Source of the DNA: a virus
Virus genome (UHGV): UHGV-1353844
Direction: 5' to 3' (one strand)
Length of the DNA stretch: 64,000 nt
In this document: positions 13,998-56,322 of the stretch, one piece after another
How the letters are laid out: the number at the start of each line of letters is the position of its first letter
Position numbering within the stretch: position 1 is the stretch's first letter
Translations under genes and position numbers: made by a program
The notes under the pieces: model-generated
What the model was told of the DNA's origin: nothing
Databases searched by the model: none
The model's input: the letters and a program-made list of their open reading frames with translations, nothing else

Positions 13998-14546
13998 TTA
14001 AACAGGTCGGTTTAAAAGGTAATGTTCGATGAGTACCTCCATTTCACGAAACAAATGTGCACAGTGATTTACCAATGCCCGATCTTCATCGGTCTTGGGC
14101 TTTAAGAAAATATCTTCGTAAGGTTCGATAAGCTCGAGTAACTGCGTTAGCTTATAATAGGCAACCGCCGGATTGGACGTCCCAAAATAAGTGTCTAACC
14201 AGCGGTTTTCTGATGAGTCTTTTTGTTTACTTAACGACTCTGGCAGCGATAACCACTCGATAGAGGTGCCGTTAATCGTGCGTTGGTATTCGTTGATATA
14301 AAAAGCAAGACGTTGGTAAAGAATATCGAGATTAGCGATGCGTAACTCGAGATTACCACGTAAGCTGGGGTGGTAGGGTTCAGTATCTACGTTTATAGGC
14401 AACGTAAGCAGCCGTAAGCCGCTAAACGTTCTCACGTAGGGGTTATGGATGTTCTTATGAAACTCCTGCCTTAGAGACTCTCTGAGAGCCTGTAAACGCT
14501 TTTGCTGTAGACGTTTCTTAAAACGTGTTATTAATCCCGTAAACAT
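13998..14546 (-). CDS. Hypothetical protein (182 aa)
   Basis: ORF. Confidence 0.5.
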   Translation of the reverse strand: MFTGLITRFKKRLQQKRLQALRESLRQEFHKNIHNPYVRTFSGLRLLTLPINVDTEPYHPSLRGNLELRIANLDILYQRLAFYINEYQRTINGTSIEWLSLPESLSKQKDSSENRWLDTYFGTSNPAVAYYKLTQLLELIEPYEDIFLKPKTDEDRALVNHCAHLFREMEVLIEHYLLNRPV

Positions 14547-14618
14547 AATTCACTCCGAAAGAATGTCTCACGTAAATAATATCTGTCTGACTTCTTTTTG
14601 AAAATGAGGTGGTTTTAA

Positions 14619-15083
14619 ATGGCTGAAGAAGAAGTGAAATACCAGGCGTTAGATGGTGAAGTAGACGACGAAGAATCGCTTCTCCGCCAAACGCAACAAG
14701 CCCGTGTCAGAATTGTCAATCTAATCTTAGACGATCCTAATGCTCACAAAGACTTAAAGACCGTGGATCGTATCGGGACGTTATTAAACGACCTAGATAA
14801 GCAAATCATTTCCAAACGTCGTGTCGCTGCTGCTCAGAAAAACAGTGAAGCGAACCAAGACTTGGCTAACGCGCTGAATACAATTCTGATGCAGCGTGGT
14901 AACGTGAAAATAAAACGTCACGACGAAGAACCTGATGAAAATAATGGTTACCAACCCACCCTTCCAGACATTCCTAACGTAGAAATCTCGGAAGGGGAGT
15001 TGGCTCCGGTTGGCGAACAAATTGACGTGAAGTCCATTATGACTGCGGCGTTTGCGCGTCCTTCTTCGGACGAGCCAGACTAA
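14619..15083 (+). CDS. Hypothetical acidic protein (154 aa) on the opposite strand within a minus-strand block; 3' end overlaps the convergent gene 15037-15759 by about 47 nt
   Basis: GAGGTGG RBS then ATG; fills an otherwise non-coding 490-bp gap. Confidence 0.4.
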   Translation: MAEEEVKYQALDGEVDDEESLLRQTQQARVRIVNLILDDPNAHKDLKTVDRIGTLLNDLDKQIISKRRVAAAQKNSEANQDLANALNTILMQRGNVKIKRHDEEPDENNGYQPTLPDIPNVEISEGELAPVGEQIDVKSIMTAAFARPSSDEPD

Positions 15084-15759
15084 ATAGCGCAGAATCACGT
15101 GGGTCGACACCGACCCACTCTGCCATAAACCGGATGTGTTCCTTGAACGGATTCACACCATCGCGTTTAAGCTGCTCTACCGTCTCTTTTGTAAGTTCCG
15201 GCGTTAGCAGGGCAGGGTGCGTAATGGTAAAGCTAGGGATAGGCTTTTTCAGATGTTTCGCATTGAGTTCAATCCAAGCGAACCAATCGTACATTATCCA
15301 ACAATCCCAAGCTGTCGCTAAACGACCCGGCGTAAGTTCCGAATGCGGCCACGACACTAACTCAACCTGCACCATATCGTAATAGATACGGAACATCTGC
15401 AAGAACATTTGCATTTCTTGGTCAGTAAGATCAGTATACGGCCAGGTGTTAATTGTCAGCGTCGGTTTTTCGATAGGCGAATGCATCTCGATTTCGAGTA
15501 ACATACATTCGAACTCGTTCTTCATCGTCAACAACAGTTCGGTGGGTTCCGCATTCATTAACGCGCGTTTATCGCGTTTCTGATATTCCTCTTTCCAATT
15601 CTCAAACCCCAAGACAGTCGCCCATTCCTCCGTAAAACGACGACGATAAACGTCGTAATCCATAATTTCCAATCTTTCAGGTTTGATGGCTTTGACCCAA
15701 CCGATTCGGGTGTCAAACAACGCATCGATATCAATCAAAAAACGTCGAGAAAATCTCAT
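15037..15759 (-). CDS. Hypothetical protein (240 aa)
   Basis: ORF; 4-nt overlap with upstream gene. Confidence 0.5.
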   Translation of the reverse strand: MRFSRRFLIDIDALFDTRIGWVKAIKPERLEIMDYDVYRRRFTEEWATVLGFENWKEEYQKRDKRALMNAEPTELLLTMKNEFECMLLEIEMHSPIEKPTLTINTWPYTDLTDQEMQMFLQMFRIYYDMVQVELVSWPHSELTPGRLATAWDCWIMYDWFAWIELNAKHLKKPIPSFTITHPALLTPELTKETVEQLKRDGVNPFKEHIRFMAEWVGVDPRDSALFSLARPKKDAQTPQS

Positions 15760-16424
15760 GACGGATGGCCTATGTTGTTACCAATGTGCATCGCTTTCAG
15801 ATACGCAGACCAGGTACGCGTTGCTTTCGAACTGGTACGTTCTGCTCCCGGCAGGTCAATACGTCCCTTACCGGTTTGACGTAACGATTGATAGAACGCA
15901 CGTTGTAAAGCTTCGTTACCTCCACGCGCCCACAGAAACTCTTTCAGTGTCCAGTCGTGACCATCGGAGTACATGATGTACGCTTCTGGGAAAGATACAC
16001 CAGATGCTTTAGAAGGACCAACAACTTGACCGGAGAGTTTATCACGAACTTTATCGTTCTTCGCTACTGCCATTTTCTTTTCTTGCATCTGCGTTTGACG
16101 ACGTGCAGGCAAGCGCAATACCAGATGTGGGTAGCGGGTACGATGGAAAACACCCGTTTTCGGCTCAGTTAACCACAACCGCTGTTCCAGGTTCAAACCT
16201 AAAACACGACAAAGCTCAACGTTTCGCATGTGGTCTATTTTAACTTTACTGCCGACCGGGTTGTAAATCGGTAAGCCTTCACGAAGACGATTAAACTGTT
16301 CGTCCGTCATTCGAGCAAAGGCTTTCTTTGCTGCCTCTGCGTTAATCCCAGAGGGGTCAACCAGGTTTAAGATTTGTAAGGCGTAAGCTTCTGCTTTTTT
16401 ACGCCGCGCTGGATCGAGTTTCAT
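15756..16424 (-). CDS. Hypothetical protein (222 aa)
   Basis: ORF. Confidence 0.5.
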   Translation of the reverse strand: MKLDPARRKKAEAYALQILNLVDPSGINAEAAKKAFARMTDEQFNRLREGLPIYNPVGSKVKIDHMRNVELCRVLGLNLEQRLWLTEPKTGVFHRTRYPHLVLRLPARRQTQMQEKKMAVAKNDKVRDKLSGQVVGPSKASGVSFPEAYIMYSDGHDWTLKEFLWARGGNEALQRAFYQSLRQTGKGRIDLPGAERTSSKATRTWSAYLKAMHIGNNIGHPS

Positions 16425-16698
16425 TTTCTACCGCCTTACGCAAGTTGGAAAGTGTCCCTGCTTCGAGGGTTTCAATCCAATAACTGATGTCGTCGGTGTT
16501 TTCAGGTACGTCGAATTTCACCGGCGGATAACCGTAGTGTTCGAGTAACTTGGAATAATATTCACCGACCTTTAAACAAAAAGATTCACGATCGGGAAAG
16601 AAAGTAGCGAAAGTCTCACGAAATGCCGCTGCTGTTTCCAGACTGACGCTGGCTAAACCTTCGCTTAAGCGTTCCACAATCTCCGTTTGATAACGCAT
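16399..16698 (-). CDS. Hypothetical protein (99 aa)
   Basis: ORF. Confidence 0.45.
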   Translation of the reverse strand: MRYQTEIVERLSEGLASVSLETAAAFRETFATFFPDRESFCLKVGEYYSKLLEHYGYPPVKFDVPENTDDISYWIETLEAGTLSNLRKAVENETRSSAA

Positions 16699-16713
16699 AA
16701 CGACTCCTTAGCT

Positions 16714-16736
16714 AGGGTAGGGGATTACCCTACCCT
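16714..16736. other. Perfect inverted repeat (AGGGTAGGG-GATTA-CCCTACCCT) between two minus-strand genes; T-tract is on the + side, so orientation and function are ambiguous
   Basis: 9-bp stem; same CCCTAC-based motif family as other hairpins in the window. Confidence 0.35.
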
Positions 16737-16743
16737 AACGCTT

Positions 16744-18240
16744 TTATTTCTTTTTGGTGAGGAACTTCGGTTCCAGGCCGTCCACGGCCATACCCAGAAT
16801 CGTACGGGCAGTTAACGTGCGTTTACCACCTTTCGTTTCTTGGTCTTTAAACATCCAATATTCTACGGTGTTCTCCAGAATCTCATTCCAATCCCATTTT
16901 TCATCAATGAGTTTGTAGATTTCTTCCATCGTGAGGTGGTATTTAACCTCTAAACGATGGTAGTTGTTCTGCATGTACGCAATCGCGGCCGTGATTTCTA
17001 ATGCCCGACGCAGTTTCGGGTTATCGTCGATCATGTCGCGAATCGTCGTACGCTGGAATTTAACACCAGGCAGAATCTGGAGTTCTTTAATGGAACCGCC
17101 GCTACCGCTGGACGTAAATCCAAATTCGGATTTTTTCAGGGTATCACTCAGGTAGTGCCACAGGCTCAGGTGGTACAGTAGACCCATCTCTTGCGAGAAG
17201 ATCATCTGGAACTTCACGCCCGTGTGACCGCCTTTAGCACGGTACTGCGTAAAGGTGATAACTTTCAGGTCGTTAACCGACGCGTTCATGGCTTTTGAAC
17301 GTGCGGTTGGGTAAAGTTCTTCGTTAACACCGGTCTGGGCGTTATAACTCTGGTCTTTTTTCAGCTCGCCTGATTTTGTCGCAACAATAAACGAGTTAGT
17401 CAAGAAGCTTAATTGACGACGAGGAATCCCTGCGAATTTGAGATCGTCGTTCGCATCGTCCAGCAGTTTCGCGTTTGCTTTCTGTCCTTGACGACCGCCC
17501 GCCATCGCCTTACCGGAGTCATCGGCCATCTGTGCAACAAAGCCCATGTAGAAACCACCACGGGCAAACGCAGACGGCCAACGGCTCATCATGTTCGATT
17601 TCTGTAAGGCATCGTGGGCGTTGAGGATGTTCTGATCGGAATCACCGATATCCGTTTTAGCGTGCTTGTCTTCCAGAGAAGACGAGTGCCACTCCGACAG
17701 GGAGTCGATAGAATACAGCCACGGGTCAAGGATTTCTTTTTGCTTACGACGAACCGGGTCAAGGAACGGCGTTACACGCGTTTTACCAGACATATACTGC
17801 TTGAAGCGTTTTTCCACTTCATCACGAATATAGTCACTGTAATATTGTTCCCCTGGCATCACGTCAGAACCAACGAGGTTATAACGACCTTCATGAATAA
17901 GTTCCAGTACCGAAGTTCCATCGTCAATACCGTTGGCGTGCATGGCAGAAATATAACCAGTCTCTAAGCGATCGAGGGCAGCAGACACCTCGGTATCGTA
18001 TTTCGAACCCCACTCCGCTTTATAGCGTTGCAGGATTTGGAAGATACAGAAATCCAACAGTGTGGATTTGAAGGTGTTACCACGACCCGCGAAACCCATG
18101 ATGTGGGCAAAACCACCGTTAAGGTAGTATAAACCATCTTCGCCTCTTTCGTAGTTGCCTAAGGCGTGGTCCATGATGGTATAAACGTTAAAACGAGGAC
18201 GAATTACTTCACCGATAACTTGCTTAGTTGGGCCTGCCAT
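16744..18240 (-). CDS. RecA-superfamily ATPase, possibly UvsX-like recombinase (498 aa)
   Basis: Deviant Walker A GRGNTFKST resembling recalled T4 UvsX GPSKSFKS; Walker B-like LYSIDSLSEW. Low-confidence motif match. Confidence 0.4.
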   Translation of the reverse strand: MAGPTKQVIGEVIRPRFNVYTIMDHALGNYERGEDGLYYLNGGFAHIMGFAGRGNTFKSTLLDFCIFQILQRYKAEWGSKYDTEVSAALDRLETGYISAMHANGIDDGTSVLELIHEGRYNLVGSDVMPGEQYYSDYIRDEVEKRFKQYMSGKTRVTPFLDPVRRKQKEILDPWLYSIDSLSEWHSSSLEDKHAKTDIGDSDQNILNAHDALQKSNMMSRWPSAFARGGFYMGFVAQMADDSGKAMAGGRQGQKANAKLLDDANDDLKFAGIPRRQLSFLTNSFIVATKSGELKKDQSYNAQTGVNEELYPTARSKAMNASVNDLKVITFTQYRAKGGHTGVKFQMIFSQEMGLLYHLSLWHYLSDTLKKSEFGFTSSGSGGSIKELQILPGVKFQRTTIRDMIDDNPKLRRALEITAAIAYMQNNYHRLEVKYHLTMEEIYKLIDEKWDWNEILENTVEYWMFKDQETKGGKRTLTARTILGMAVDGLEPKFLTKKK

Positions 18241-18255
18241 TTAGCGCTCCAATAA

Positions 18256-18555
18256 TTAACGATTCTTGGTCGGAAGAAGAAGACGGCGTTTGTGCCAGAA
18301 TTCAAAGTAGGTCTCTACCCACTCGGTGACTTCTTCCGATTTTTCAGGATAGGGGTTCTCAATAGACTCGAAACGACGTTTGTTGCGCTCGTCGATTTCT
18401 AATTCCATCACGCGCTTACCGTTAGGTAAAGAAGTCACGCTAAGAATCTTACCTACTTGAATAGGCTTACCTTCTTTGTCTTTTTTCACCGGGGTAAGAT
18501 AGATTTCCGGTTCCAGACGAGGCGTGGTGTTTCGAGTCAGTAATTTGATTTTCAT
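18256..18555 (-). CDS. Hypothetical protein (99 aa)
   Basis: ORF directly upstream of RecA-like gene. Confidence 0.45.
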   Translation of the reverse strand: MKIKLLTRNTTPRLEPEIYLTPVKKDKEGKPIQVGKILSVTSLPNGKRVMELEIDERNKRRFESIENPYPEKSEEVTEWVETYFEFWHKRRLLLPTKNR

Positions 18556-18652
18556 CGAGCTTTACCTTTATGAGATAATCTCGGTCATAAGTTCAGGATG
18601 AACTGTAAAAAGACTTTACTATGTAACCCTGACTTATAATCCGAGGTTTTAA

Positions 18653-19408
18653 ATGAACGTAAATCCACTTGCAGCGTTAACTAGCTTTGCCGCTAAAGCG
18701 TCTGCAATCTTACCCAAAGGGTTCAGTGGCCCTCAACAAGAGATTGCATTAACCACTTACGACGACATGTCAGACGTTTCCAAGTGGATGCAACAGGAAA
18801 AATTCTTACACTTTGCAGGCATGTTGGTCATTGTACCGCCAGGCTTCAATACCTACGTAATGGATCACATTAACCGCTTAGAATCGGTGTGGAGTTCATT
18901 ACAGAAGATCTACGACGGTGTCCTTTTACCTGTTGAGTTGCAACTTTCCGCCCTTACACATGATGTGGGCGTACTGTCATTACCTATCGGTTTCCGTTAT
19001 AAAAACGTTAACATTCCGTTACGTAACGTGAATCCGAAAGACCTGGTTAATCAGTTGGCTAAGTCCTACACCAACAACGTTATTGACCAGCGTCCGATTG
19101 AGAAAACGTACCACAGCGCGACGGAAATCGATATTGCGTTTAACCGTGCAAAAGCACTGAACGTTGAGATCACGAAGAAACTTCGTACGAACATTGACAA
19201 ATCCATCGAGTCTATTAAAGCCTCTGCAACGATTCTGTCTGAACAAAACATCCATCCTAACGTAGCAAAAGAACTGACAGCGATGTTAGACTTTGCATCC
19301 GATTGGGTTGAACTGTTTGGTTTGTTCATGAAACAAGTGAACGAATTGATTGAATGTCTGAACGTGACGGCTGAACGCCTGAAAGCGCTGAAGGCAAACA
19401 AAAAATAA
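18653..19408 (+). CDS. Hypothetical protein (251 aa)
   Basis: ORF with GAGG RBS; followed by terminator. Confidence 0.5.
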   Translation: MNVNPLAALTSFAAKASAILPKGFSGPQQEIALTTYDDMSDVSKWMQQEKFLHFAGMLVIVPPGFNTYVMDHINRLESVWSSLQKIYDGVLLPVELQLSALTHDVGVLSLPIGFRYKNVNIPLRNVNPKDLVNQLAKSYTNNVIDQRPIEKTYHSATEIDIAFNRAKALNVEITKKLRTNIDKSIESIKASATILSEQNIHPNVAKELTAMLDFASDWVELFGLFMKQVNELIECLNVTAERLKALKANKK

Positions 19409-19420
19409 AAAGTAAAAGCT

Positions 19421-19446
19421 ACCCCTAGACCACAAGGTCTAGGGGT
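19421..19446. terminator. Bidirectional terminator (ACCCCTAGACC-ACAA-GGTCTAGGGGT) flanked by A-tract and T-tract
   Basis: 11-bp stem between convergent genes; coordinates approximate. Confidence 0.6.
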
Positions 19447-19462
19447 AATCTTTATTTTCACG

Positions 19463-20347
19463 CTAAAAACCAGATATAAAGGTGGGTGCAATCCATCGCC
19501 ACTCCTGCCAGCGTGATCCTGTCATTGGTCCACACCAGACACGTTTCCAATGCGCCCTGCGTATGTGTGCTGCGCGATGTGGCGTTAAACAGATTCTCCT
19601 GCCTTCCCTGCGTTGTTTTTCTAAGTCTTCGCGTTGTACTGGACTTACGTCAACAACGACAGGTTCTCTGCGTGGGAGAATTTCTGTATCAGGTACGTAA
19701 CGTGTCGTTCTACCACGGTATTCCCGTCTCTCGCGTTCCGATTTCTTCACCCGCGAGGAAAGATATAAACCGATATGTACCTCATCCAGAAGTTCCTCGT
19801 CCTTTGACTCGTTAGCAAAGTAAGGCTCTAAACTAACAAAGTCATCTGCCTTTCTGTTGAACCGATAAATCTTGGTTGACCAACAGTGCCGCTGATTTAT
19901 CTCCACCCATCGTAAAACGAACAATACTTCCTCACCTTCGAATTTACGACGACCGATAAAGAGCGTAGCAGGAAGTTCGTTAATCTTGACAGTCACGGAA
20001 AAGGTGAATGAAGGGATGGCTTCAATCCACGCGTACGGAATGTCCGTTAAACGTTCTGTGTCTGCAAGTAACGCCATCAACTCGTTATCGGAGATAATTT
20101 CAATACCTGCGTATTGCCAACCCAAACCTAACGACTGGCGAATAGAATACGGCACCTGTTTGGTGGTGCCGAACTCACGGTACGTTGGGTCGTTAACGGG
20201 CAGAAAGGTTACGGGGAGTTGTCTCTTGTGTTCCCTGACAAACGTTAGAAACCGATCTTCTTTCAGACCAAACAAGTCTTTGTGTGCAGTCTCTATAGCT
20301 TCACTAATACGTCGAAGCGTGTCTCCATAAATTCTGCGTCTTAACAT
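19463..20347 (-). CDS. Hypothetical protein, paralogue A of a tandem pair (294 aa from internal ATG; track start is GTG at 20470)
   Basis: ATG (MLRRRIYGDTL) preceded by AGGAG at 7 nt. Shares LGxGWxYxG and C-terminal HIRRAHW motifs with 20358-21290. Confidence 0.5.
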   Translation of the reverse strand: MLRRRIYGDTLRRISEAIETAHKDLFGLKEDRFLTFVREHKRQLPVTFLPVNDPTYREFGTTKQVPYSIRQSLGLGWQYAGIEIISDNELMALLADTERLTDIPYAWIEAIPSFTFSVTVKINELPATLFIGRRKFEGEEVLFVLRWVEINQRHCWSTKIYRFNRKADDFVSLEPYFANESKDEELLDEVHIGLYLSSRVKKSERERREYRGRTTRYVPDTEILPRREPVVVDVSPVQREDLEKQRREGRRICLTPHRAAHIRRAHWKRVWCGPMTGSRWQEWRWIAPTFISGF

Positions 20348-20357
20348 TATAATTCTC

Positions 20358-21290
20358 CTAGTCTTGCGTGTGGGGTACGTAGCCTCGGACAAATGTCGGT
20401 GGAATCCAGCAAAGTTTTCTCTTCCTTTCCCCATCTCTTGGACCGACCCAATATCTACGCCAGTGCGCACGACGAATGTGCGCAGCTTTGGCGTGTTTGA
20501 TACCCTGCATGGCTTTCAAGTCGGTGTTAAATCCTTTTAGATATTTTACTTGTCCTGGTGTGATATCAACCTTAACATCACGTTCTCGCGGTTTAACGTC
20601 GTAACTAATACTACCGTTCTTTTTGATTTCCCTGAACTTAATATCATTAAAAGACTCCCTGTAATTAGGCGGGATTAGCGTGCACAGAAATATCATCGAA
20701 GTGGCGGCTTTGGCCAGAGATAACCATAACATCTTCTCTTCTTCGGTCTGTACGCCAGTTGTATAATCAATTTCAACAAGCCCGTTTCCTACACTACGAA
20801 GCTCTAACGAACAAGTGGCAATTGTGGTAACTCCTTCTGTTAACCCGTAATCAGTATTTGTAGCGATTATAATAAACCTTCTCTTCCCATTTTTTCGATA
20901 GCCGAGAAAGAAAGTCTCATCCTCTTTACCTACGTCGATTGCCACAGTCCATGCGGGTATAAAGTCCAACCATTCTTCAGGGAATTTACTGGGCATCTCA
21001 GTCTCGAAAACAAGTTCTCTAAGTGCTTGGTTGGATATTAAGGAAACCCCGCCATATAGCCACCCGATTGCCAACGTTTGTGCGTGAAGGGAACGTGGAT
21101 CTTTGAGACCTAACTCAGTGTCGTAGGGTATAAAGGAATTGGTTAAATGGTTACGATTCTTTTTTATCCATTTCGAGACAGGATTTTCTTTTGTTTGGTT
21201 TTCTTCCATGACATTTTCTAGATGCTGACTCCCCATTTGTCTAAGACAGTCTTTAATACCTTTTACTTTTTTACTTTTGTACAAATACAT
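20358..21290 (-). CDS. Hypothetical protein, paralogue B of a tandem pair (310 aa)
   Basis: C-terminal AAHIRRAHWRRYWVGP...WIPPTF matches AAHIRRAHWKRVWCGP...WIAPTF of neighbour. Confidence 0.5.
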   Translation of the reverse strand: MYLYKSKKVKGIKDCLRQMGSQHLENVMEENQTKENPVSKWIKKNRNHLTNSFIPYDTELGLKDPRSLHAQTLAIGWLYGGVSLISNQALRELVFETEMPSKFPEEWLDFIPAWTVAIDVGKEDETFFLGYRKNGKRRFIIIATNTDYGLTEGVTTIATCSLELRSVGNGLVEIDYTTGVQTEEEKMLWLSLAKAATSMIFLCTLIPPNYRESFNDIKFREIKKNGSISYDVKPRERDVKVDITPGQVKYLKGFNTDLKAMQGIKHAKAAHIRRAHWRRYWVGPRDGERKRKLCWIPPTFVRGYVPHTQD

Positions 21291-21323
21291 GGTATATACT
21301 CCTAAAATGGTTAAAATAAAGTA

Positions 21324-21343
21324 ACCCTAGCCGAGGCTAGGGT
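21324..21343 (-). terminator. Terminator hairpin (ACCCTAGCC-GAG-GCTAGGGT) with A-tract on + strand
   Basis: Follows end of minus-strand gene at 21349; coordinates approximate. Confidence 0.5.
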
Positions 21344-21348
21344 GTATA

Positions 21349-21837
21349 TTAGTCGATCTTGACGTAATTTGGATAGTTAGCTTTTAGCCATTCCCACAGG
21401 TGTAGTGCGAGCATACCTTGATCGTAGCTAATGATTTCCACAATACCGTGTGAGTGTGCTTCATTGCCCCAAATTTGACTATAGAAACGACGCCACTCAC
21501 CTTCTGCATAAGGCGGTACAATTGCTGGGATAAAACCATTATGGTATTCGTTAATTAGCGATTGTAATGTTTCAATACGGATTCCGTATAACCGTCTATC
21601 GATAAATGATTTTGTGATTCCGCCAAAGAAACCAACAAAGAAATCATCCAGATTCGTTATAAGTCGGGCTCTGTAACTATTTTCGATGTAGTCGGCGGCA
21701 ACGCCAGCCATCCAAGGAGTATCGACGACCATTGGTGCGAGTTTATTTCTGATCGTGGCATGTACACGGTCGGTATGGTTGAGGAATTCATGAATGATGT
21801 CTGAGTTTTTCAAAGCGATAATTTGATTTAAATTCAT
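21349..21837 (-). CDS. Hypothetical protein (162 aa)
   Basis: ORF, last gene of operon. Confidence 0.5.
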   Translation of the reverse strand: MNLNQIIALKNSDIIHEFLNHTDRVHATIRNKLAPMVVDTPWMAGVAADYIENSYRARLITNLDDFFVGFFGGITKSFIDRRLYGIRIETLQSLINEYHNGFIPAIVPPYAEGEWRRFYSQIWGNEAHSHGIVEIISYDQGMLALHLWEWLKANYPNYVKID

Positions 21838-21854
21838 GTTTTAATTTCCTTAAG

Positions 21855-22403
21855 TTAAACGGTGCTTGTCTTAGCGGGTTGAAGTTTTGATGACAAGTAA
21901 ATAATCTCAGAACTGCACACCCTTTTCACTAATGCCAGATTTTCAATAAAGATATCTCGAATACGAGACATGGTTTCATTAGTAAGGATATCACTCCAGC
22001 ACACAGTATCGACTATGTTGGTTTCAGCATTCTGTTGCTGTATAACACCAACGTAAATCGTTTCGAAATCGTCTGGGGAATGATTTTGTAAATAGTGTGC
22101 TGCGTCAACGAATGCTTTTTCCAGTATCGAATCTACCGTAGTGTCTGGGTCAGTTACACGAACCAGATAAGGTCGTTCTATCACTGCGTGAATCCGCCTT
22201 TCTAATACGTCTACCAGAAAATCCACCATCGCCTTAGCGTCTAAGATCACCACGGTTTCCCCGTTGTTCTCTTTTGTCAGCTTTCTCTCGTACACTGCTA
22301 TTGCGTCGTGCAGTTCTAACGTCACTTTACTTCGCATTTCAGTAAGTATTTTATTTAGCCTGTCGCGTGACGAACTCAGAGAAAAATCGATAAGTAATTT
22401 CAT
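21855..22403 (-). CDS. Hypothetical protein (182 aa)
   Basis: ORF. Confidence 0.5.
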   Translation of the reverse strand: MKLLIDFSLSSSRDRLNKILTEMRSKVTLELHDAIAVYERKLTKENNGETVVILDAKAMVDFLVDVLERRIHAVIERPYLVRVTDPDTTVDSILEKAFVDAAHYLQNHSPDDFETIYVGVIQQQNAETNIVDTVCWSDILTNETMSRIRDIFIENLALVKRVCSSEIIYLSSKLQPAKTSTV

Positions 22404-22404
22404 G

Positions 22405-23142
22405 TTAATAATCCTGATAAATGACGTCAGCCCGGTCTTTACGTAACTGGCAGTATGTTACATCAGCACCGTTAGGGATTCGCACACCGGTGTCTTCTAG
22501 ATAAATAACACCAGTCTGATTACAGAAATAAAAAGACCACAAATACGGATCGCCATGACACCCATTTTCGTAATGATTGAACGGCCAATAACCACGATGT
22601 AATTCATCAAAATCATCGCGCTCGATACCGTAAGCAATCATTTCTTTTTCCCACAACTTACATTCAGCATCATAAGTCGAATACCAGAAACCAACGAGAT
22701 TCTTTGTTCGTTTGACGTTCATTAAGTCGTTATAAATGGGAAAGAGTGCTTTATTGTAATTTTCTAACATGTTCGGGGAAAGTAGAAAATTCACGTAGTA
22801 TTCTAGCCATTGATAAACGGCCTCCCAGACATCTTCAGAGGAGAAATGTTCGAATACGGCGTCATCACAATCGTAGTTATCGAAGATCGCTGAGAGATCT
22901 ATTATGATGTCGCGAAGGTCAAAGTTTCGGTTGGTGTTAATAGCGTCAATAACCTCAGAGATGAGGTGAGTAAAGACATTTGTACAGGCTGTTTGTGCGG
23001 TGTAAAAGAATTCTCCTTGGACAGTTGACCATTTTGGGTCTTTCAGGCGTTCATTGAAGTATTGTGGCCAAATTTTATAAAATAATCCCTCGAACAACGA
23101 GGGATTGATACGTTGTAATTGAGGGACATAAACTTTCAACAT
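22405..23142 (-). CDS. Hypothetical protein (245 aa)
   Basis: ORF. Confidence 0.5.
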   Translation of the reverse strand: MLKVYVPQLQRINPSLFEGLFYKIWPQYFNERLKDPKWSTVQGEFFYTAQTACTNVFTHLISEVIDAINTNRNFDLRDIIIDLSAIFDNYDCDDAVFEHFSSEDVWEAVYQWLEYYVNFLLSPNMLENYNKALFPIYNDLMNVKRTKNLVGFWYSTYDAECKLWEKEMIAYGIERDDFDELHRGYWPFNHYENGCHGDPYLWSFYFCNQTGVIYLEDTGVRIPNGADVTYCQLRKDRADVIYQDY

Positions 23143-23179
23143 GGTGATTAACTCCGAGGGTTCTACACCTGAATAATAT

Positions 23180-23851
23180 CTATCTAAGAAAGTTTTTAGC
23201 GAAATAAGGTTCGATGTGAAACTCTTTTACGAGAGAATCATAGCCGGAGTGAATCTGATCGGAGTTGAGTAGGAAACGGCCTAGATCGTGTGGAAGTATC
23301 CAGGCGTCACCTTGTTTGAAAATAGTGTGACCTACAGTTTCTGGAGAAAGTCGAATTTCTTCCGGGAAGGGATACGTTTGTTTCAAATCAAGGTCGGTGG
23401 GTTTTAAGGTAACTAAACGAACGGGTCGTTTACTGGCCACCTCCTTAACGAACTGGTTACGATCAAACCAGATAATCTTTTCAGGGTAGCTTTCCAGCTC
23501 ACTCCAGACTTTGTTAATCACCAGATTAAAGTTGTGTTGCAGTTCCCCAGACTGGTTAGCGTAGCCTAAGCACTCTTCTACCAAAACAGGATTACCGTAA
23601 GTGTTCGTAGTACCCTGTGCAATCACACGTTGTGGGAAACAATCTTTCGGTATATCACAACCTGCATTGTACAATGCAATGATTTCCCACAATGAGCGTA
23701 AGGCAAGTTCAAGTGCTACTTCCCCGAGTGTATAGTGGTCGTCAGAATAGGGGGCTTTAAAGCCCCACTGCTGACGCGCAATTGCTGAAAAGCGTACCTG
23801 GATATAACTCGGTGCCATCGATAACGCTTGACTAAAAACAATCAGCATCAA
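23180..23851 (-). CDS. Hypothetical protein (223 aa)
   Basis: ORF; ATGA overlap with upstream RNase H gene. Confidence 0.5.
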   Translation of the reverse strand: MMLIVFSQALSMAPSYIQVRFSAIARQQWGFKAPYSDDHYTLGEVALELALRSLWEIIALYNAGCDIPKDCFPQRVIAQGTTNTYGNPVLVEECLGYANQSGELQHNFNLVINKVWSELESYPEKIIWFDRNQFVKEVASKRPVRLVTLKPTDLDLKQTYPFPEEIRLSPETVGHTIFKQGDAWILPHDLGRFLLNSDQIHSGYDSLVKEFHIEPYFAKNFLR

Positions 23852-25359
23852 AGTTCCTTATCGGTCAATATTCGTTTGTTTGAATAATAACCACACCACA
23901 GACCGTGATACTTCTCACCGATATACACTAACGCGTATTCAACGTACTGACGTTCTGGACGACGTACAGCGACGTAGAATCGTCCATTCGGTTCTTTGAT
24001 ACGGTTGATTTCCGTACGCGTCGGTAGGTCGATAGCGCGTGTCAAAATAGTTTTAACGCCAACCTTCCCGTTAGGGATTTTAATGGAAACGTCAAACCCT
24101 TTATCCACGTTTCGGTAAAAGTCTTTGGTGGGTTTACCTTTTTCGTCATAAAGCAAATCGGTAATGTCATTTAAGACAACGTTCGATTTGCCTTCCAAAC
24201 AGTCACGCAGCCACTCTGCCAGTTCATCACGAATGGTTACGCAGCGGTATGACAATAACGCGGGACGCAGAATACGACTGATAGACAAGTCTTCGTACAT
24301 CCACAGGTTTTTGTCTTCGCTAAAGTGCATTTTGTCAACTGGGATACCGTTAGCCGCTGCTTCCGCAAACTTCTTACGTTTTACGAACAGGTTGAACACA
24401 ACAGCGATAGGGTCAAACTGACGCAAACGTGGTACGCCCTCCCAGGCTTTAGCAGCGTGAGCGTTAACCAAATCGTAAACGTTCGTCCACGGCTCACGTG
24501 TAAACATCACACAAAACTGCGCATCAGGAATGTATTTTCCGACGAAGACAATATCGTCCTTCTGTTTTGCGTGGTTACCCCCGAACATGTAATAGAGATT
24601 TTCACCGTTTACTTTAACTGTAGGGTGCTGCTCATTTACCATCGGGTAACAGAACTTAGTTACGCAAATATCAGGAAACGCGGCAACGTTAACGCCTTCA
24701 CTGACGATTTCTTCCTGCTGTTCTTCCGGAATTTCGTCTGCCGACCAGTACGCCTGATAATCTAAGCCTTCTCCGTGTGCAGAGATGGACGATCCTTTTC
24801 GTGCCAGCCCGTCAGCCCGTTCGTTACCGTAGTGACCAGAGTGTCCTTTGATTTTAAGAACACGAATCCCTTTTCCTTCTTTCTTCAGACGTTTCTTAAT
24901 TTCCCACATCCGTTGAACCAGCTCAAGGTTTGCGATAGGGGTTCCATCAGCCCGTCGCCAGTCCCGCTTAGCCCAACCGTCAATCCAATCGTTAAACGTA
25001 TTCACAACGTAAGACGCATCGATATAGATAATGTAGTTCTTTGCAACGAACGGTGCTTTTTCGAAAACGGTTAAAAAAGCAACAATCTCTGCAACATCGG
25101 AGTGGTGGTGTTTCGGTACCGGAATAACACAGTCTACGAACTCAACAGAGTCTGGTAACGCAGGAAGTTTTTCCTCTTTGTTAATCTGGCGATAACCAGA
25201 GGTCGTAATCCCTTCGGGAATGGTAGGGTGGCGATAAACGCCACCGTCAACAATCTCTTCCTTGTTAAACAGGTAGCCGTGAATCCCACCGCCTGTTCCC
25301 ATCGGTGAGGTTAAATGGCTACCGTCGGTATAAAGTACAGCAACATCAACGTTCTTCAT
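23848..25359 (-). CDS. RNase HI-domain protein (503 aa): N-terminal type-1 RNase H domain fused to an uncharacterised C-terminal region of about 300 aa
   Basis: YTDGS at N-terminus; IDASYVVNTFNDWIDGWAKRDWRRADGTP...KIKGHSGHYGNERADGLARKG aligns with recalled E. coli RNase HI (TDSQYV...WKKRGWKTADKKP...[20 protein letters not shown]). Confidence 0.8.
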   Translation of the reverse strand: MKNVDVAVLYTDGSHLTSPMGTGGGIHGYLFNKEEIVDGGVYRHPTIPEGITTSGYRQINKEEKLPALPDSVEFVDCVIPVPKHHHSDVAEIVAFLTVFEKAPFVAKNYIIYIDASYVVNTFNDWIDGWAKRDWRRADGTPIANLELVQRMWEIKKRLKKEGKGIRVLKIKGHSGHYGNERADGLARKGSSISAHGEGLDYQAYWSADEIPEEQQEEIVSEGVNVAAFPDICVTKFCYPMVNEQHPTVKVNGENLYYMFGGNHAKQKDDIVFVGKYIPDAQFCVMFTREPWTNVYDLVNAHAAKAWEGVPRLRQFDPIAVVFNLFVKRKKFAEAAANGIPVDKMHFSEDKNLWMYEDLSISRILRPALLSYRCVTIRDELAEWLRDCLEGKSNVVLNDITDLLYDEKGKPTKDFYRNVDKGFDVSIKIPNGKVGVKTILTRAIDLPTRTEINRIKEPNGRFYVAVRRPERQYVEYALVYIGEKYHGLWCGYYSNKRILTDKEL

Positions 25360-25361
25360 TC

Positions 25362-26096
25362 TTAATCCCTGGTTAACTGATCACGAATCTGTGGTGGAAT
25401 ATACTCACCGGTTTTCAGTTCTTCGTGACAGGCTTTAGCACGTTCGTACCCGTACTCGCGGGTAATCAGTGCAAGGTGATAAATACGTGCGGTGGTGTAA
25501 GCTTCTTTCGCGGCATCCCACAAAGCATGGTGTTCAAATGCCGGTTTACCCCGCGTCCAGTAAACTTGCTCAACGGTCAAGTCAGGCTCAAAACCAAACG
25601 CCAGCGCTAAACGTTCTGCGGTGCGGTCACTGTCTAACGCGCTGAACTTACGGAATTTACCTGGAGGGACGTCACATTGTGCGAATGCGTTCATGAAAAT
25701 CGGAGAATCGAAATCTGGCCCACGCATGGTAATAACGAAATTGTGTTTGCCGGTGATTTCGTCTAACCACTTACGCATTGCCCACAGCGCTTCCGGCATA
25801 GGAGTTGTACCACCCCATGCTTCCGTGTAGGCTTCACGAGACGGTGCGTATTCAGGTTCTCCTTTACCTTCCCACCACCCCACGGTTTGCGGGTCTTCGT
25901 GGAACACAGCTTTTGCTTTAGGGTCGTTAGGATCAATACGCATATACGACGACCCTACCATTTTTAAAGTCGGTACGTCAAAGGCAACTAAGCCTGTGGT
26001 TAACAAATACGCATCAGGACGCAGTGATTTGGTTTCTGCGTCAGCACCAATTACCAGCGTCGGTAAGGTGGGTTGAATCGTTTTCGGGTATGTCAT
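25362..26096 (-). CDS. DEDDh-type 3'-5' exonuclease (244 aa), DnaQ/DexA-like
   Basis: Exo I-like motif VIGADAETK and C-terminal HHALWDA (H-x4-D); motif-level call. Confidence 0.5.
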   Translation of the reverse strand: MTYPKTIQPTLPTLVIGADAETKSLRPDAYLLTTGLVAFDVPTLKMVGSSYMRIDPNDPKAKAVFHEDPQTVGWWEGKGEPEYAPSREAYTEAWGGTTPMPEALWAMRKWLDEITGKHNFVITMRGPDFDSPIFMNAFAQCDVPPGKFRKFSALDSDRTAERLALAFGFEPDLTVEQVYWTRGKPAFEHHALWDAAKEAYTTARIYHLALITREYGYERAKACHEELKTGEYIPPQIRDQLTRD

Positions 26097-26183
26097 GTTA
26101 AGCTCCTTTCTCTATACATTAGAAGGGGGTTAAACGTTAAAAAGAAAATACCTCCTGTACCCCGAAGGATACAGGAGGCGTTG

Positions 26184-26639
26184 TCAGTTCAAACACGTTG
26201 TCAGATACTGATCGTAGGCGTCTAACAAAGCTTGCCGGTCAGAGCGATAATTCCACAGCAACGAATTCAGTTTACGTGACAAATCCAGACTGATTTCTTG
26301 TGGCGTTAACGCTTTATCGTCTAAAAACATCTTTTCTGGAACGGAATGTAATTTAGGAATTTCAAACCGTTCGCAGATAGGTGCTAACATCGGTGGATTC
26401 CACCCGCGTTTGACTGCTTGCTGATTTAAGTTTCGTGTGTAGAGATAAACGTAATAAGCGTATGTATTCACATCCGCAACATATTCCCGCATCGCGTCTT
26501 TATCAATTTTCCAATTTAGCATGATAGGCGGCGCTGGCGGAGGTTGTAATGCAGTATAGGATGACCGTTTACCGGGTTCTCCATAGCCATTACTCACCAA
26601 ACCCACGCACAAAATCATGATGAATAACAGCGATTTCAT
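26184..26639 (-). CDS. Secreted hypothetical protein (151 aa) with signal peptide and Pro-rich segment
   Basis: N-terminus MKSLLFIMILCVGLVSNGYG; QPPPAPP. Confidence 0.45.
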   Translation of the reverse strand: MKSLLFIMILCVGLVSNGYGEPGKRSSYTALQPPPAPPIMLNWKIDKDAMREYVADVNTYAYYVYLYTRNLNQQAVKRGWNPPMLAPICERFEIPKLHSVPEKMFLDDKALTPQEISLDLSRKLNSLLWNYRSDRQALLDAYDQYLTTCLN

Positions 26640-26642
26640 CAG

Positions 26643-27146
26643 TTACTCCTTAGGTGAGGATAACGTCTTTATGATCTCCTGACGGAAACTGTTAGCGTTC
26701 TGACTACCAACAGGTCGCGCCGAAGCTTCTTTGCGTTGTTCTGGTGTTGAAGCTGGGCTAACAGGAGTTTCTGGTTTCTTAGGTGTTAAATCTTTGGTAG
26801 AGTTGTCTTCTTTTACCGTGCTGTACCCGCTTTCATATGGCGGTTTCTGGCCGAGGCAAATAAAGAGCTTGTCGTATAATCTACCATTATCATCTTTCAG
26901 TTTGTCACGATCTTGCTTCATCTCTTGGTAAGATTGCGACATGTATTGATCATGAGATTGTACTGTAACGAGCTTGTGAAACTGCACTACGTACGCATAG
27001 GAGACGAAAGCCGAGTAGGATAACAAGACCGTGATGATTAAAGTCATTATCTTGTTTGCTCTTGATACGTTTTCTCCTTCTCCTGGTTTAAATGCTTCCA
27101 TCAACATCTGAATGAAGAACGGAAGCACTTTAAGAAATGAACCCAT
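26643..27146 (-). CDS. Membrane protein (167 aa): one TM helix then charged coiled-coil and Pro/Ser/Thr-rich tail
   Basis: Hydrophobic IMTLIITVLLSYSAFVSYAYVV; KQDRDKLKDDNGRLYDKL. Confidence 0.45.
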   Translation of the reverse strand: MGSFLKVLPFFIQMLMEAFKPGEGENVSRANKIMTLIITVLLSYSAFVSYAYVVQFHKLVTVQSHDQYMSQSYQEMKQDRDKLKDDNGRLYDKLFICLGQKPPYESGYSTVKEDNSTKDLTPKKPETPVSPASTPEQRKEASARPVGSQNANSFRQEIIKTLSSPKE

Positions 27147-46380: not shown

Positions 46381-47859
46381 TTATTTTTTTCTTGCACGGA
46401 AACGATGCATTTCCAAATAGACTTTTTCCCAGGGACCGAAAGGTCCTACGATTGCCTGTGCATCGTTAATTTTCTTCTGGTTATACCAACGGGCCTCACG
46501 GAACACGTAGTTTTGACTGTCGAATTCCGTGGTGTTAAATACCCATTCCCCTTCTTCCCACGTCGGCCAATAAGCAACGGTTTTACCGAAGCGGTTTAAC
46601 AGATAGCCCAGCTGTTTTTCCCCATCAGGGTCATTAGGATCTTTAAGGTATAAACGTCCCCAGATAGCGTTGTGAGAAACCCCCACAACTTCTTCTTCCA
46701 GATACGGATTATCCACCGTAAAGATAAACGACGACTCGTGGGTTAAAAGCGCCTTTAATGTTTCTGGGTTGCGGATACGCTGTACGCTGGTCGGGGATGA
46801 CAGATCGCCAACACCGATGCTATCCCAGTCGTAATAACGTCGGGTTTCTAACACAGTACGCGCAACGTCAAAGTTCGGTAACGAGACCATAATGGCTTTG
46901 TCGGAGAAGTACCCAGTAACCGGTAACCAGTGTATCAGACCCCCGATAACAAACCCCACGGTTTTACCCGTAATAGATTCCGGTAAAGAAATCATTAACG
47001 TGGAATAATAGTCACGGGTGGTGTCGAGTTTGTTTAGGGTCAAGTTAGCAATGGGGTACGTTTTAACATTCCCCAATTTACTAAAGACCATGCAGCCGAT
47101 ATCCGGTGTCCCTGCACGACGTACTATCTTACCCGCGCCCGGTAAACGTACACCAACTGTATCCGACTGATGTGGTACCCATTGACCGTTGATGTTGTAC
47201 AACACCCCGTTACGGTATTTGTCTTTCCATTTATCTTCGCAAACAATCACAACGTCGTCAGCATCGTCTATACTGAAATCTTGACTGTAATGGTAACCGG
47301 GAGGACACAGGTAGGTTTCTACTGGAACATCGGCATTAATCGATTGGTAGTGTGCCCAATCAAACTCTAACGTCGGTAAACCGTCTTTCAACGCAGAGAT
47401 AACCACACCGGCTTTTTCATTCAGCCAGTCTTGTAACGTATCGGTACGGTTTTGTAAGTCAGCGAGGTGATATTGGCTAATTAACGTATAGTCTTTACCA
47501 AGCGCACTCAGACCGACTTCGAAAATATGGTAATCAGAACACAAGGTTTCTAAGGGTTGCGTGACGTCGATGGCTCCCCAGGTACGGGTCTCTCGAGAGA
47601 AGCCAAAAGCGCTGTCAGGCCGCACTTGATAAGCAGTAGTCACAGCTCTTTTCCTCAATAGATTCAAGTCATAGTATGAACTCGACGCCCACGGACTATA
47701 GGAGTAGATAATGGCTGTCGTCCTAGACCCACACTTCAAAGAACCGGGGAATAAAATAACCGGTGAAGCGGTCGCCGTCATTGGTACGAAGTACCGAATG
47801 TTGGTACCTGCCCACGCCCCTTTTTTCACCACATCCCTGGTGGTCAAGAGCGGCGGCAA
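46381..47859 (-). CDS. Hypothetical protein (up to 492 aa) on the minus strand at the head of the tail-fibre block; start uncertain (track start is TTG; first ATG at 47781 has no clear RBS)
   Basis: Long ORF filling 46381-47710 where no + strand ORF exists; 5' end overlaps the divergent start of the 1440-aa gene. Confidence 0.45.
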   Translation of the reverse strand: MPPLLTTRDVVKKGAWAGTNIRYFVPMTATASPVILFPGSLKCGSRTTAIIYSYSPWASSSYYDLNLLRKRAVTTAYQVRPDSAFGFSRETRTWGAIDVTQPLETLCSDYHIFEVGLSALGKDYTLISQYHLADLQNRTDTLQDWLNEKAGVVISALKDGLPTLEFDWAHYQSINADVPVETYLCPPGYHYSQDFSIDDADDVVIVCEDKWKDKYRNGVLYNINGQWVPHQSDTVGVRLPGAGKIVRRAGTPDIGCMVFSKLGNVKTYPIANLTLNKLDTTRDYYSTLMISLPESITGKTVGFVIGGLIHWLPVTGYFSDKAIMVSLPNFDVARTVLETRRYYDWDSIGVGDLSSPTSVQRIRNPETLKALLTHESSFIFTVDNPYLEEEVVGVSHNAIWGRLYLKDPNDPDGEKQLGYLLNRFGKTVAYWPTWEEGEWVFNTTEFDSQNYVFREARWYNQKKINDAQAIVGPFGPWEKVYLEMHRFRARKK

Positions 47860-50800
47860 AATACTGACCTTAGGCGACGATTACGTTATTACACACCCGT
47901 ACGAGACCGGTATGTTGCGCACAGCCTATCTCGTGCACGGGATGATTTGGATTGTTAATGACAAATACAAATCGAATTTCACGGTAGATTACCACGCCGT
48001 AGGTTGTGGTGAAGCGACCCAAGAACAGATTACCGCAGAACGCGAACTCAATAAAGATAAATACCCGTCTGCGTGTCAATGGGATACCGTTATCGGCGAA
48101 GTTTACTTTCCACCGGTCGATATTCAGTTCGACTGGGAAAACTGGAAAGGTGAACTGGAATTAATGCAGGCCATTGCAGGCTTAGGTGATTCGTTAGGTA
48201 ACGTGGTGAATCGGGTAGACCCGATTGCACGTAACACGTTAGATATCGAGCATCGTGCTAATGGTACGGTTATCACGTCTGAACAGTACGCAACGTACGA
48301 CAACAAAGGTGGGTATACTTACAATACCGCTAAACGCCGTTTCTCCGTTACGTACAAAACCACCACGTTAAATGAATATTCCCTGTCGATGAAATACCGT
48401 ATTCCGGCTATTTTTCCGAATATGGGGAGTATTAATCCGAACGAACAAATCGATTGGATGTTGTGCTACGCGAACGGTGGCGCAAGTATCCTTCGTCTCC
48501 AATTAAAACAACGTAAAATCAGCCTACGACTGACAGTTGCGTTAGGCAGTGGTTCGACCGATTATGATTATACGTTAATCAACGGTTTGACCGACGATGA
48601 ATTAAAAGGCGAATTAACGTTTAGCGTTGTTCGTCAACCGGGTAACGGTGTATACGTTATCGAGGTGACGACTAACAAACAGTCCATGGACTACACCTTT
48701 AACGTTGACACACCGCCAGACGAATTCTCAGCAGGTTACACCAAAACGGATGTTGCGAAGTGGCTGAAGTACAAAACCAACGTTAACTTAAACTGGTGGG
48801 CGGCTGAGAACGATTATGCTCAATTCCTTGCGTTACCTGGTGCGCCAGAAGCAGACGTAAGTAACGACGTTTATCAGTTAATCGTTAAGTACCATCAGTT
48901 AGTAGAACAGCTCTATCGCAACGCGCCTGCGCACGAACACGTCACCCGTAAGGATAACCCACACGCTGACACCTGGGGTCCGATTCGTGCGTTAGAATTA
49001 AACGGCATTGCATCCGACGCAGCATTAGCCTACGGGAAAACTAAGGAGCAATTAACCGATTACGTAAACGCTAAGTACCCAACGCAGGCAACGTTAACCG
49101 CCCAGAAAAAACTGCTTCGTGAATCAGCGAGCAAGAACGTTAACGGCACGATTACAACGCTCCCCGGCTTTACGTCATTTACTACTGAAGTCGACCCAGT
49201 GTCGATGTCGAAGTACGTGAGTCCTTATTTTAGTGAAAGCTATGTTAGTAGTGGCCACAGATATCACGGTGCGCTTCGTTATACAGGAACGAAAAGCGGT
49301 TTCAGTGCTAACTTTAATGCGGTACCTGCCAACCTGCAAGATATTGACTTTATTGTTACCGGACGTAAAACAGCGTCTGGTAATGAAGCGGTCGGTAGGG
49401 TTGGTTTTCGTTTCTACGAAAATCCCGGTAGTAACTCCGGTAAGTACGTAGAGATTACCGGTGAAGTCTGGTCCGGTACTCTTACTATCGAACTGGCGTT
49501 GCACGGTTACGGTAGTCCTGTACCGGCAGTTCGGTATATTTCGCAAGCTCCTAATCCGGCAATACCGGATGGGGATTTTACGCTACGTTTTCAACTGAAG
49601 CGTACAGGGAATGTGTTTGACGTCGTTATTACCGTAAACAGTAAAACGTATAGCGGTCGGATTAACTTCAATAACATGGACGCTGCGTTAGAAGCATTAG
49701 AGAATCAGCACCACTTTAAATCGCTGATCAATAATGTTGCTGACGGCGTCAATATTAGTTCGCAAAACAAAGGTAACACGGTTACCATTAAGAAAGCACC
49801 TGGCGTTGTTGACGAGAGACGTTTAGGTGCTCAGTTTGTCGTTGATCCGAAATCCATTAAGTTCATCGGTCAAGGTTCTACTGACGTTAACGTGGGTAAC
49901 AACCCGGTAACGTTGCAAGCGGGAGATAACCAGCTTGTGCTATATCCTGATGACCGTGGATTACTGTGGCGCGGTAAGAAACTCTTAGACCCCACTACGG
50001 TAGCGCCGTATTTGCCGGGCAATACCGCAGGCGGTACGGGATTATTCTACGGTGCAACTACAGCTACAGTGGAACTTACGGGTAGCGGGATTAAAGCGTC
50101 GCCGTTTGTCGCAACGTTTATTCTTCCGGTTGCCGAAGACGTTACTACGTTAGCGTGTTGGCAGTTAACGGACGAATTCGGTACGGCTGAAAACCTCGCA
50201 GCAACCCCTGCGTTAATTGAAAAACTGGACGCAGAGTTTACCGGTAAGTTAGTTGCCGCCAAGTCGTACATCAACGACATGCAGCTTACCAGTTCGGTTA
50301 CTATCGACAAAATTACCTTTGGTTTAGGTAACGTTGCGAATACCCCGGACGTTGACTTACCGATTTCTGTTGCACAGCAGACCGAGCTGGACAAATACTC
50401 ACCGAAGGTTCACCAACACCCGTCTTCCGTATTCGGTGTTGCGAACGCAGACACCACGAAACGGGGCCTGATTAAATTCGGTCTGGAAGTGGATGATGCC
50501 ACTTTAGCGCTCGACGGTAGTGTGGTGATGGCGCAGACTTCCCAGATTGAAGATTTGGAGAATACCGTCGGCGGGGTTGACTCGGGTGCGCGCGTTGACA
50601 TTATTCGCTTTGGTAAGTCCGGTAACGACCTAATTGACGTTACGGTTAAAGACAAAATCCTAGTGACACTTCCTGCTTCCACGTATTTCGTTGGCGGCGA
50701 AACGTACGACGTGCCGTTGATGTCGGTTAACGTCACTGAACGTTTCCCGAATCTGAATAAGGAAATTTACGCAGGGATTTTTGTTGACATTGTCGATAAC

Positions 50801-52033: not shown

Positions 52034-52043
52034 GGAGAATTTT

Positions 52044-56228: not shown

Positions 56229-56267
56229 GACAGGCTGCCTGCGGGCAGTTGTGTGTCCGTAGGTAAC

Positions 56268-56290
56268 CCCTCCCTGTAATGGGGAGGGGT
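56268..56290 (+). terminator. Terminator hairpin (CCCCTCCC-loop-GGGGAGGGG) followed by T-rich tract
   Basis: After stop of 1394-aa gene; coordinates approximate. Confidence 0.5.
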
Positions 56291-56322
56291 ATCCATTTTA
56301 TTTAAAAGTAGGAGTCTTTACG

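Follow-up and report, generated by a model that had tools for sequence, protein, structure and literature searches.

A tandem pair of divergent AcrVA2-like genes with a variable module in an uncultured SPN3US-like jumbo phage

The 64,000-nucleotide stretch of virus genome UHGV-1353844 analysed here (the window) comes from an uncultured jumbo phage of the SPN3US-like (Seoul-like, nucleus-forming) group, the host of which is probably Enterobacter. It contains two adjacent minus-strand genes, gene A upstream and gene B downstream (Table 1), which almost certainly belong to the AcrVA2/FinQ family (Pfam PF26125 'AcrVA2-like'). The products of A and B match each other with 24% identity over ~280 residues (BLASTP, expectation value E 2e-24), a similarity far beyond chance, and the two genes are distant, ancient paralogues. 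In the reading that we favour, with a probability of about 0.55 for the statement as a whole, A and B form a bicistronic accessory silencer cassette that would act by an AcrVA2-type mechanism on targets other than Cas12a.

The exact product of gene A and its 294-aa neighbour are tagged PF26125:AcrVA2-like (E <= 1e-5) in a large protein collection. All close homologues (P0001-P0005) carry the tag PF26125.1, and each related contig has a 294-aa neighbour with a PF26125 tag. Both A and B fall into phrog_6160 (function unknown) in a PHROG search, B with E 4e-22. The C-terminus of A matches AcrVA2 directly (phmmer against PDB 7CI1 chain A, E 8.7e-5), in an alignment that pairs HAKAAHIRRAHWRRYWVGP...CWIPPTFV of A with HTKRPHIRRGHWHGYWQG...RWQPAVFV of AcrVA2. 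A profile of 11 sequences, jumbo-phage members only, aligns with a profile of five AcrVA2-clade members at a probability of 99.5% (hhalign, E 1.9e-22, 255 columns), and the aligned columns span nearly the whole proteins. A phmmer search of gene B alone against the PDB found nothing, and a profile of five close sequences gave a weak result in the same database (E 0.015). Word-indexed homologue searches yielded only 2-7 proteins each; the wider family emerged from an exhaustive profile search, with 637 cluster representatives at E <= 1e-3 and a typical length of 300-380 aa, and the motif H.R..[HY]W is present near the C-terminus of 139 of the 153 proteins retrieved. Single-copy homologues in other jumbo phages are 22-30% identical to A, and the orthologue of B (P0005) is 64% identical. 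Neither A nor B had a match in Pfam or NCBIfam, the Pfam copy used being one that lacks the PF26125 model; because even the AcrVA2-clade protein P0026 stays unmatched in it, this null result is not evidence against membership.

A first-pass annotation made from the sequence had recorded both open reading frames (ORFs) and their paralogy, which are found as described, and had called the family unfamiliar. The remote homology search that it proposed leads instead to PF26125, PDB 7CI1 and PHROG 6160, i.e. to an accessory family of conflicts between genetic elements and not to the housekeeping phage family that it had named as a counter-case. The family as such had been published before, together with its structure and motif, its occurrence on megaphages and the finding that it predominates in hosts without Cas12a.

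The two motif blocks quoted in that annotation occur verbatim in A and B, and by alignment they correspond to the two experimentally implicated sites of the family. For the residue map, the AcrVA2 chain sequence was rebuilt from a printed alignment and placed with mafft --add onto a 47-sequence family alignment; hhalign was also used for the block around W79 and D89. This GW...D/N block is common to A (LAIGWLYGGVSLISN) and B (LGLGWQYAGIEIISD). Its W79-equivalent column holds W in 42 of the 47 sequences, the D89-equivalent column D in 31 and N in six. The C-termini read AAHIRRAHWRRYWVGP...CWIPPTF in A and AAHIRRAHWKRVWCGP...RWIAPTF in B. Here H286, R288 and H291 of AcrVA2 fall on H271, R273 and H276 of A and on H261, R263 and H266 of B, and all three columns are invariant (47/47). 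Gene B keeps all mapped functional residues. In AcrVA2, W79A and D89A weaken activity, whereas H286A, R288A and H291A abolish down-regulation with target binding kept and even stabilised (Marino et al., bioRxiv 10.1101/2022.11.29.518452). The conserved basic His/Arg/Trp-containing element that had been postulated at the C-terminus is thus the AcrVA2 H286/R288/H291 region; the C-terminus may also have a nucleic-acid-binding role, as had been suggested, which like metal binding is neither confirmed nor excluded.

The AlphaFold2 model of gene A, built on the 47-sequence alignment, has a predicted local distance difference test score (pLDDT) of 84.4 and a predicted template modelling score of 0.79. 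It starts with N-terminal helices, continues with a beta-sheet plus helices and ends in a four-strand domain with the His/Arg motif. This agrees with the three-domain order (helical N-terminal, beta/alpha middle, four-strand C-terminal) described for the model of an AcrVA2 homologue, which its authors called consistent with 7CI1 (PMC10846135). No nuclease or nucleic-acid-binding fold was detected for the model of A, and its matches in BFVD are all uncharacterised phage proteins, many of them from jumbo phages. One Foldseek match to the AcrVA2-like model (E 5.9e-11, template modelling score ~0.59) is the BFVD entry A0A223LH45 of Erwinia phage RisingSun; its label, 'Putative mycothiosynthase', is probably wrong.

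Among related phages, whose distribution had been proposed as a check, the locus contains 0, 1 or 2 copies of the gene, which is therefore accessory. The syntenic slot lies between an RNase H block and the (-)251-aa/99-aa/UvsX genes. It holds no AcrVA2-like gene in SPN3US (JN641803, 186177-187537, between gp213 and gp214), one in SaP7, one in Asesino and two in the window lineage. SaP7 belongs to the same species as SPN3US and has a 924-bp AcrVA2-like gene at that spot, so the two phages represent a presence/absence polymorphism within a species. The homologues Asesino gp235, SaP7 ULF48428 and those of EC001 and ChrisDB (Erwinia, Salmonella and Escherichia jumbo phages) share the slot and PHROG 6160 with A but are single copies, annotated as hypothetical and uncharacterised. 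What sets the window lineage apart from these is that it also carries the divergent paralogue B and has A in two allele classes. In the tree the single-copy genes group with A; B and P0005 are on a separate long branch.

The allele classes of A were compared in nine near-identical genomes, with flanking DNA 95-98% identical and the 251-aa neighbour 100% identical. Against two of them, L003 and L006, the window is 97-98% identical in blastn up to 20695 and from 21885, whereas the island in between is 77% identical or has no match. Residues 1-198 of A fall into two classes, with 96-100% versus 58-59% identity to the window, whereas residues 199-310 are 90-100% identical and gene B 97-99%. The number of synonymous substitutions per synonymous site (dS, Nei-Gojobori) is 1.2-1.5, i.e. 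saturated, in the swapped part of A versus 0.11-0.14 in B. Because of this saturation, the classes indicate old alleles exchanged by recombination and not recent diversification in place. The breakpoint is located near codon 198, inside a long helix of the middle domain. The ratio of nonsynonymous to synonymous substitution (dN/dS) is highest in residues 120-198 of A (0.37-0.59), and in the same central stretch A and B are essentially unalignable (4-22% identity). In AcrVA2, D129 and D195 contact a Cas12a peptide in 7CI2 (bioRxiv 10.1101/2022.11.29.518452). The 120-198 stretch of A appears to flank the equivalents of these two residues, the correspondence being approximate.

Gene A forms a small accessory hotspot with the 162-aa gene just upstream (21349-21837, minus strand), for which no Pfam or PHROG family was found. 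Among the window, L003, L006, L007, L008 and L015, which are otherwise 95-100% identical, the product of this gene has 45-99% amino acid identity. A linkage of the 162-aa gene to the A allele is ruled out by L015, which has an identical A and a 47%-identical 162-aa gene. A neighbouring 174-aa gene is present in five relatives and missing from the window, and L006 possesses two 161-aa copies.

A and B look like a single bicistronic unit because terminator-like hairpins flank the pair on both sides. The AGGAG of B precedes its ATG (20347) by 7 nt, and its overlap with the stop codon of A, noted in the first-pass annotation, is present. An alternative GTG reading of B extends to 20470 (335 aa) and overlaps A; every related contig has the 294-aa call, and none uses the longer reading. 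A search with a family hidden Markov model detected no third copy in the 64-kb window. A sigma-70 promoter scan upstream of A gave nothing useful; since SPN3US-like phages use their own RNA polymerases, the timing of expression is not inferable from it. The hairpin at 19419-19448 has a perfect, GC-rich stem of 12-13 bp and is 100% conserved in L008.

Table 1. Coordinates of the A-B gene pair, its motifs, signals and variable region in the window
Feature	Position	Strand	Remarks
Gene A, AcrVA2-like protein, upstream gene	20358..21290	-	ATG start, 310 aa
Gene B, divergent AcrVA2-like paralogue, downstream gene	19463..20347	-	ATG start, 294 aa
Gene A codons 73-87, LAIGWLYGGVSLISN	21030..21074	-	W77 = AcrVA2 W79, N87 = AcrVA2 D89
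Gene B codons 73-87, LGLGWQYAGIEIISD	20087..20131	-	W77 = AcrVA2 W79, D87 = AcrVA2 D89
Gene A codons 271-277, HIRRAHW putative effector motif (H-x-R-x-x-H-W)	20460..20480	-	= AcrVA2 H286, R288, H291
Gene B codons 261-267, HIRRAHW putative effector motif	19547..19567	-	alignment
Divergent island versus near-identical phages: 162-aa gene and gene A codons 1-198	20695..21885	-	blastn, per-module identity, dN/dS
Gene A AGGAG ribosome-binding site	21299..21303	-	8 nt before gene A ATG
Gene B AGGAG ribosome-binding site	20355..20359	-	overlaps last two bases of the TAG stop of A (20358-20360)
Terminator-like hairpin closing the upstream 162-aa gene, upstream boundary of the A-B unit	21324..21343	-	
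Terminator-like hairpin between gene B and the convergent (+) 251-aa gene	19419..19448	both	scored on both strands

The genes of the window include those for virion proteins, SbcC, RNase H and UvsX, the latter 81% identical to SPN3US UvsX. A megablast of the locus against phage records gave no match, i.e. no close isolate in that collection. The 222-kb circular 'plasmid unnamed1' of Enterobacter ludwigii 51A:C (NZ_CP134650.1, source gull cloaca) has 96.9% DNA identity over positions 14000-27000 of the window and carries the same A-B pair, annotated as hypothetical. This record, typed as non-mobilizable, is really a near-identical SPN3US-like jumbo phage genome and looks like a case of a virulent jumbo phage that persists in a bacterial isolate. 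It fits the reported long-term persistence of Seoul-like, chimallin-encoding jumbo phages in enterobacterial isolates (bioRxiv 10.1101/2024.12.31.630880).

AcrVA2 binds an N-terminal peptide of Cas12a (LSKT motif), and through its action cas12a mRNA is lost in a way that depends on translation; cas12a is the only gene that it down-regulates transcriptome-wide (bioRxiv 10.1101/2022.11.29.518452). About 1,800 homologues are reported, mostly where Cas12a is absent and also on megaphages, and the known homologue targets are only Cas12a and the F tra genes of FinQ (same source). Vertebrate tubulin autoregulation, in which the nascent tubulin N-terminus is recognised and mRNA decay follows, was drawn as a parallel by Marino et al.; it shares the coupling of nascent-peptide recognition to decay of the translated mRNA proposed for the AcrVA2 family, but is eukaryotic, without homology and an analogy only. 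AcrVA2 itself (Moraxella bovoculi prophage; PDB 7CI1/7CI2; founder of PF26125) resembles A and B in its length of ~300-320 aa, in full-length profile homology, in the W79/D89 block and the H286-x-R288-x-x-H291-W motif, and in being borne by a mobile element. It differs in its location in a prophage beside acrVA1, whereas A and B are a tandem pair in a virulent-type SPN3US-like jumbo phage of Enterobacteriaceae. Direct sequence similarity of A to AcrVA2 is limited to the C-terminal 40-70 residues, and the recognition region of A and B is different.

By analogy with AcrVA2, the variable N-terminal and middle module (residues ~1-198 of A) would recognise one target protein by a short peptide during its exit from the ribosome, and the constant C-terminal four-strand beta domain with its two His and one Arg would trigger loss of the target's mRNA. 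Either a catalytic, metal-independent RNase centre or the recruitment of a host RNase could provide the effector step. The paralogues A and B and the two alleles of A would silence different targets, most likely cytoplasm-made proteins of host defence or of competitors and not Cas12a. Such targets might be cytoplasmic, RNA-level or translation-level defences that lie beyond the shielding by the phage nucleus, or proteins of rival elements. Several points make Cas12a an improbable target: beyond the C-terminal block there is very little similarity to AcrVA2, the recognition region differs, most AcrVA2 homologues are found where Cas12a is missing, the phage is associated with an enterobacterial host, and phages that form a nucleus already have protection against Cas nucleases that target DNA. 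Enterobacteriaceae are not known to carry type V-A (Cas12a) systems. An AcrVA2-type mechanism on targets other than Cas12a, taken by itself, we regard as slightly favoured. That A and B are two peptide-programmed, translation-coupled silencers of different non-Cas12a proteins, with the recognition module of A exchanged as a cassette and the H-x-R-x-x-H effector module fixed, is a more specific and more tentative proposal, with the odds somewhat against it.

Several points weigh against the favoured reading. The mechanism is transferred from a relative to which A is only 11% identical in a structural alignment, and the chemistry of mRNA destruction is not known even for AcrVA2 (bioRxiv 10.1101/2022.11.29.518452). 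The structural model covers A only, its quality required an alignment that contains AcrVA2-clade sequences (a shallow alignment gave pLDDT 39), and Foldseek with this model against the PDB did not recover 7CI1. Gene A has N instead of D at the position of AcrVA2 D89, and the family motif LYLC(S/T)..P is lost in B. Positive, diversifying selection on the variable module of A is unproven, with dN/dS never above 1 (at most 0.59, where dS is saturated), and the pattern in A could be neutral mosaicism at a recombination hotspot.

The alternative that survives best, although clearly the less probable, is that A and B are FinQ-like weapons between mobile elements, directed by the same peptide-guided mechanism at genes of a co-resident plasmid or of a co-infecting or persistent phage; it differs from the favoured reading only in which proteins are targeted. 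FinQ of IncI/F-like plasmids such as R621a is homologous to AcrVA2, resembles it in the predicted C-terminal domain and keeps the HxR; it inhibits F transfer and lowers tra mRNA (bioRxiv 10.1101/2022.11.29.518452); finQ is among the listed plasmid fertility-inhibition genes. Like A and B it has the HxR, and it acts in Enterobacteriaceae without Cas12a. Seoul-like phages that persist in enterobacterial isolates would meet plasmids and other phages there (bioRxiv 10.1101/2024.12.31.630880), and the allele swapping of A fits an arms race among elements. FinQ is, however, plasmid-borne and acts on conjugation, whereas A and B lie among the virion, UvsX and RNase H genes of a jumbo phage, and no plasmid context, let alone a conjugative plasmid, is seen at their locus. 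A tblastn search of gene A against 72,556 plasmids revealed no FinQ-type match, the only match being the jumbo-phage 'plasmid', and the relationship of A to FinQ appears remote.

Two further alternatives are improbable. In the first, the C-terminus is a general nucleic-acid-binding or metal-binding element, and A and B are non-specific regulators or nucleases, e.g. for host shut-off, or housekeeping or structural proteins. The C-terminal block is indeed basic and conserved, an arrangement of two His and one Arg is typical of metal-independent RNases, and genes for RNase H, a 3'-5' exoribonuclease and UvsX are nearby. A housekeeping role is contradicted by the absence of the gene from SPN3US and its variable copy number, a structural one by the lack of a structural PHROG annotation, and a non-specific one by the restriction of the AcrVA2 effect to cas12a (bioRxiv 10.1101/2022.11.29.518452). 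In the second, which we rate lower still, one of the duplicates, B most probably, is decaying or without function, and A varies by neutral mosaicism at a recombination hotspot. The lost motif and the long branch of B are compatible with decay, as are the hypervariable 162-aa gene next to A and a dN/dS below 1 everywhere with mosaicism. B is nevertheless intact, with a dN/dS of ~0.03-0.1 across eight related genomes; this constraint, its conservation, its complete set of mapped functional residues and its orthologue P0005 are signs of purifying selection, and the effector module of A is conserved across the allele classes.

That A and B are genuine type V-A anti-CRISPRs silencing Cas12a is very improbable: they share family, fold and effector residues with AcrVA2, and huge-phage proteins clustering with it were suggested as possible anti-CRISPRs (PMC7162821), but the phage is Seoul-like with an Enterobacter-associated twin, Seoul-like phages encode chimallin and the nucleus shields them from DNA-targeting Cas enzymes, so that this function would add little, and a single conserved target would hardly explain why there are two paralogues plus two alleles that differ in their recognition regions.

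AcrVA2 is the only prokaryotic protein so far reported to destroy a specific mRNA after nascent-peptide recognition. By itself, the finding assigns two genes to a known family and does not establish a novel type of system. Some novelty, of a mild kind, lies in the AcrVA2-like gene being an accessory one, present in some Seoul-like chimalliviruses and absent from others, and in an ancient tandem duplication whose putative recognition regions have diverged. The same holds for the exchange, by recombination, of the putative recognition module of A while its effector module stays constant; modular specificity would be expected to leave such a pattern. BLAST-based surveys have reported no verified anti-CRISPRs in Seoul-like nucleus-forming jumbo phages of Enterobacteriaceae. 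If the more specific proposal of two silencers with an exchanged recognition module is true, the natural allele series of A in the SPN3US-like group, which has culturable relatives, would provide a system in which to study the encoding of specificity within the AcrVA2 family, and could reveal the role of the family outside CRISPR. The two alleles of A, gene B and His-to-Ala trap mutants are concrete constructs for target discovery.

The 162-, 182-, 245- and 251-aa products neighbouring the pair have no Pfam match at E <= 0.1 except two at chance level, and their PHROGs are all of unknown function. No helix-turn-helix protein (aca-type regulator) was detected near the pair in a search that was not exhaustive. 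Elsewhere in the window, three consecutive plus-strand ORFs of 1440, 1394 and 1728 aa (47711-61509) match each other's PHROGs (7557, 8078, 7449 and 2163; virion structural) and appear to be a tandem paralogous virion protein family. A TTG-started ORF of 492 aa (46381-47859, minus strand) overlaps the start of the divergent 1440-aa ORF (47711-52033, plus strand) by ~150 nt; because its PHROG match begins at residue 77, its true start is probably further in.

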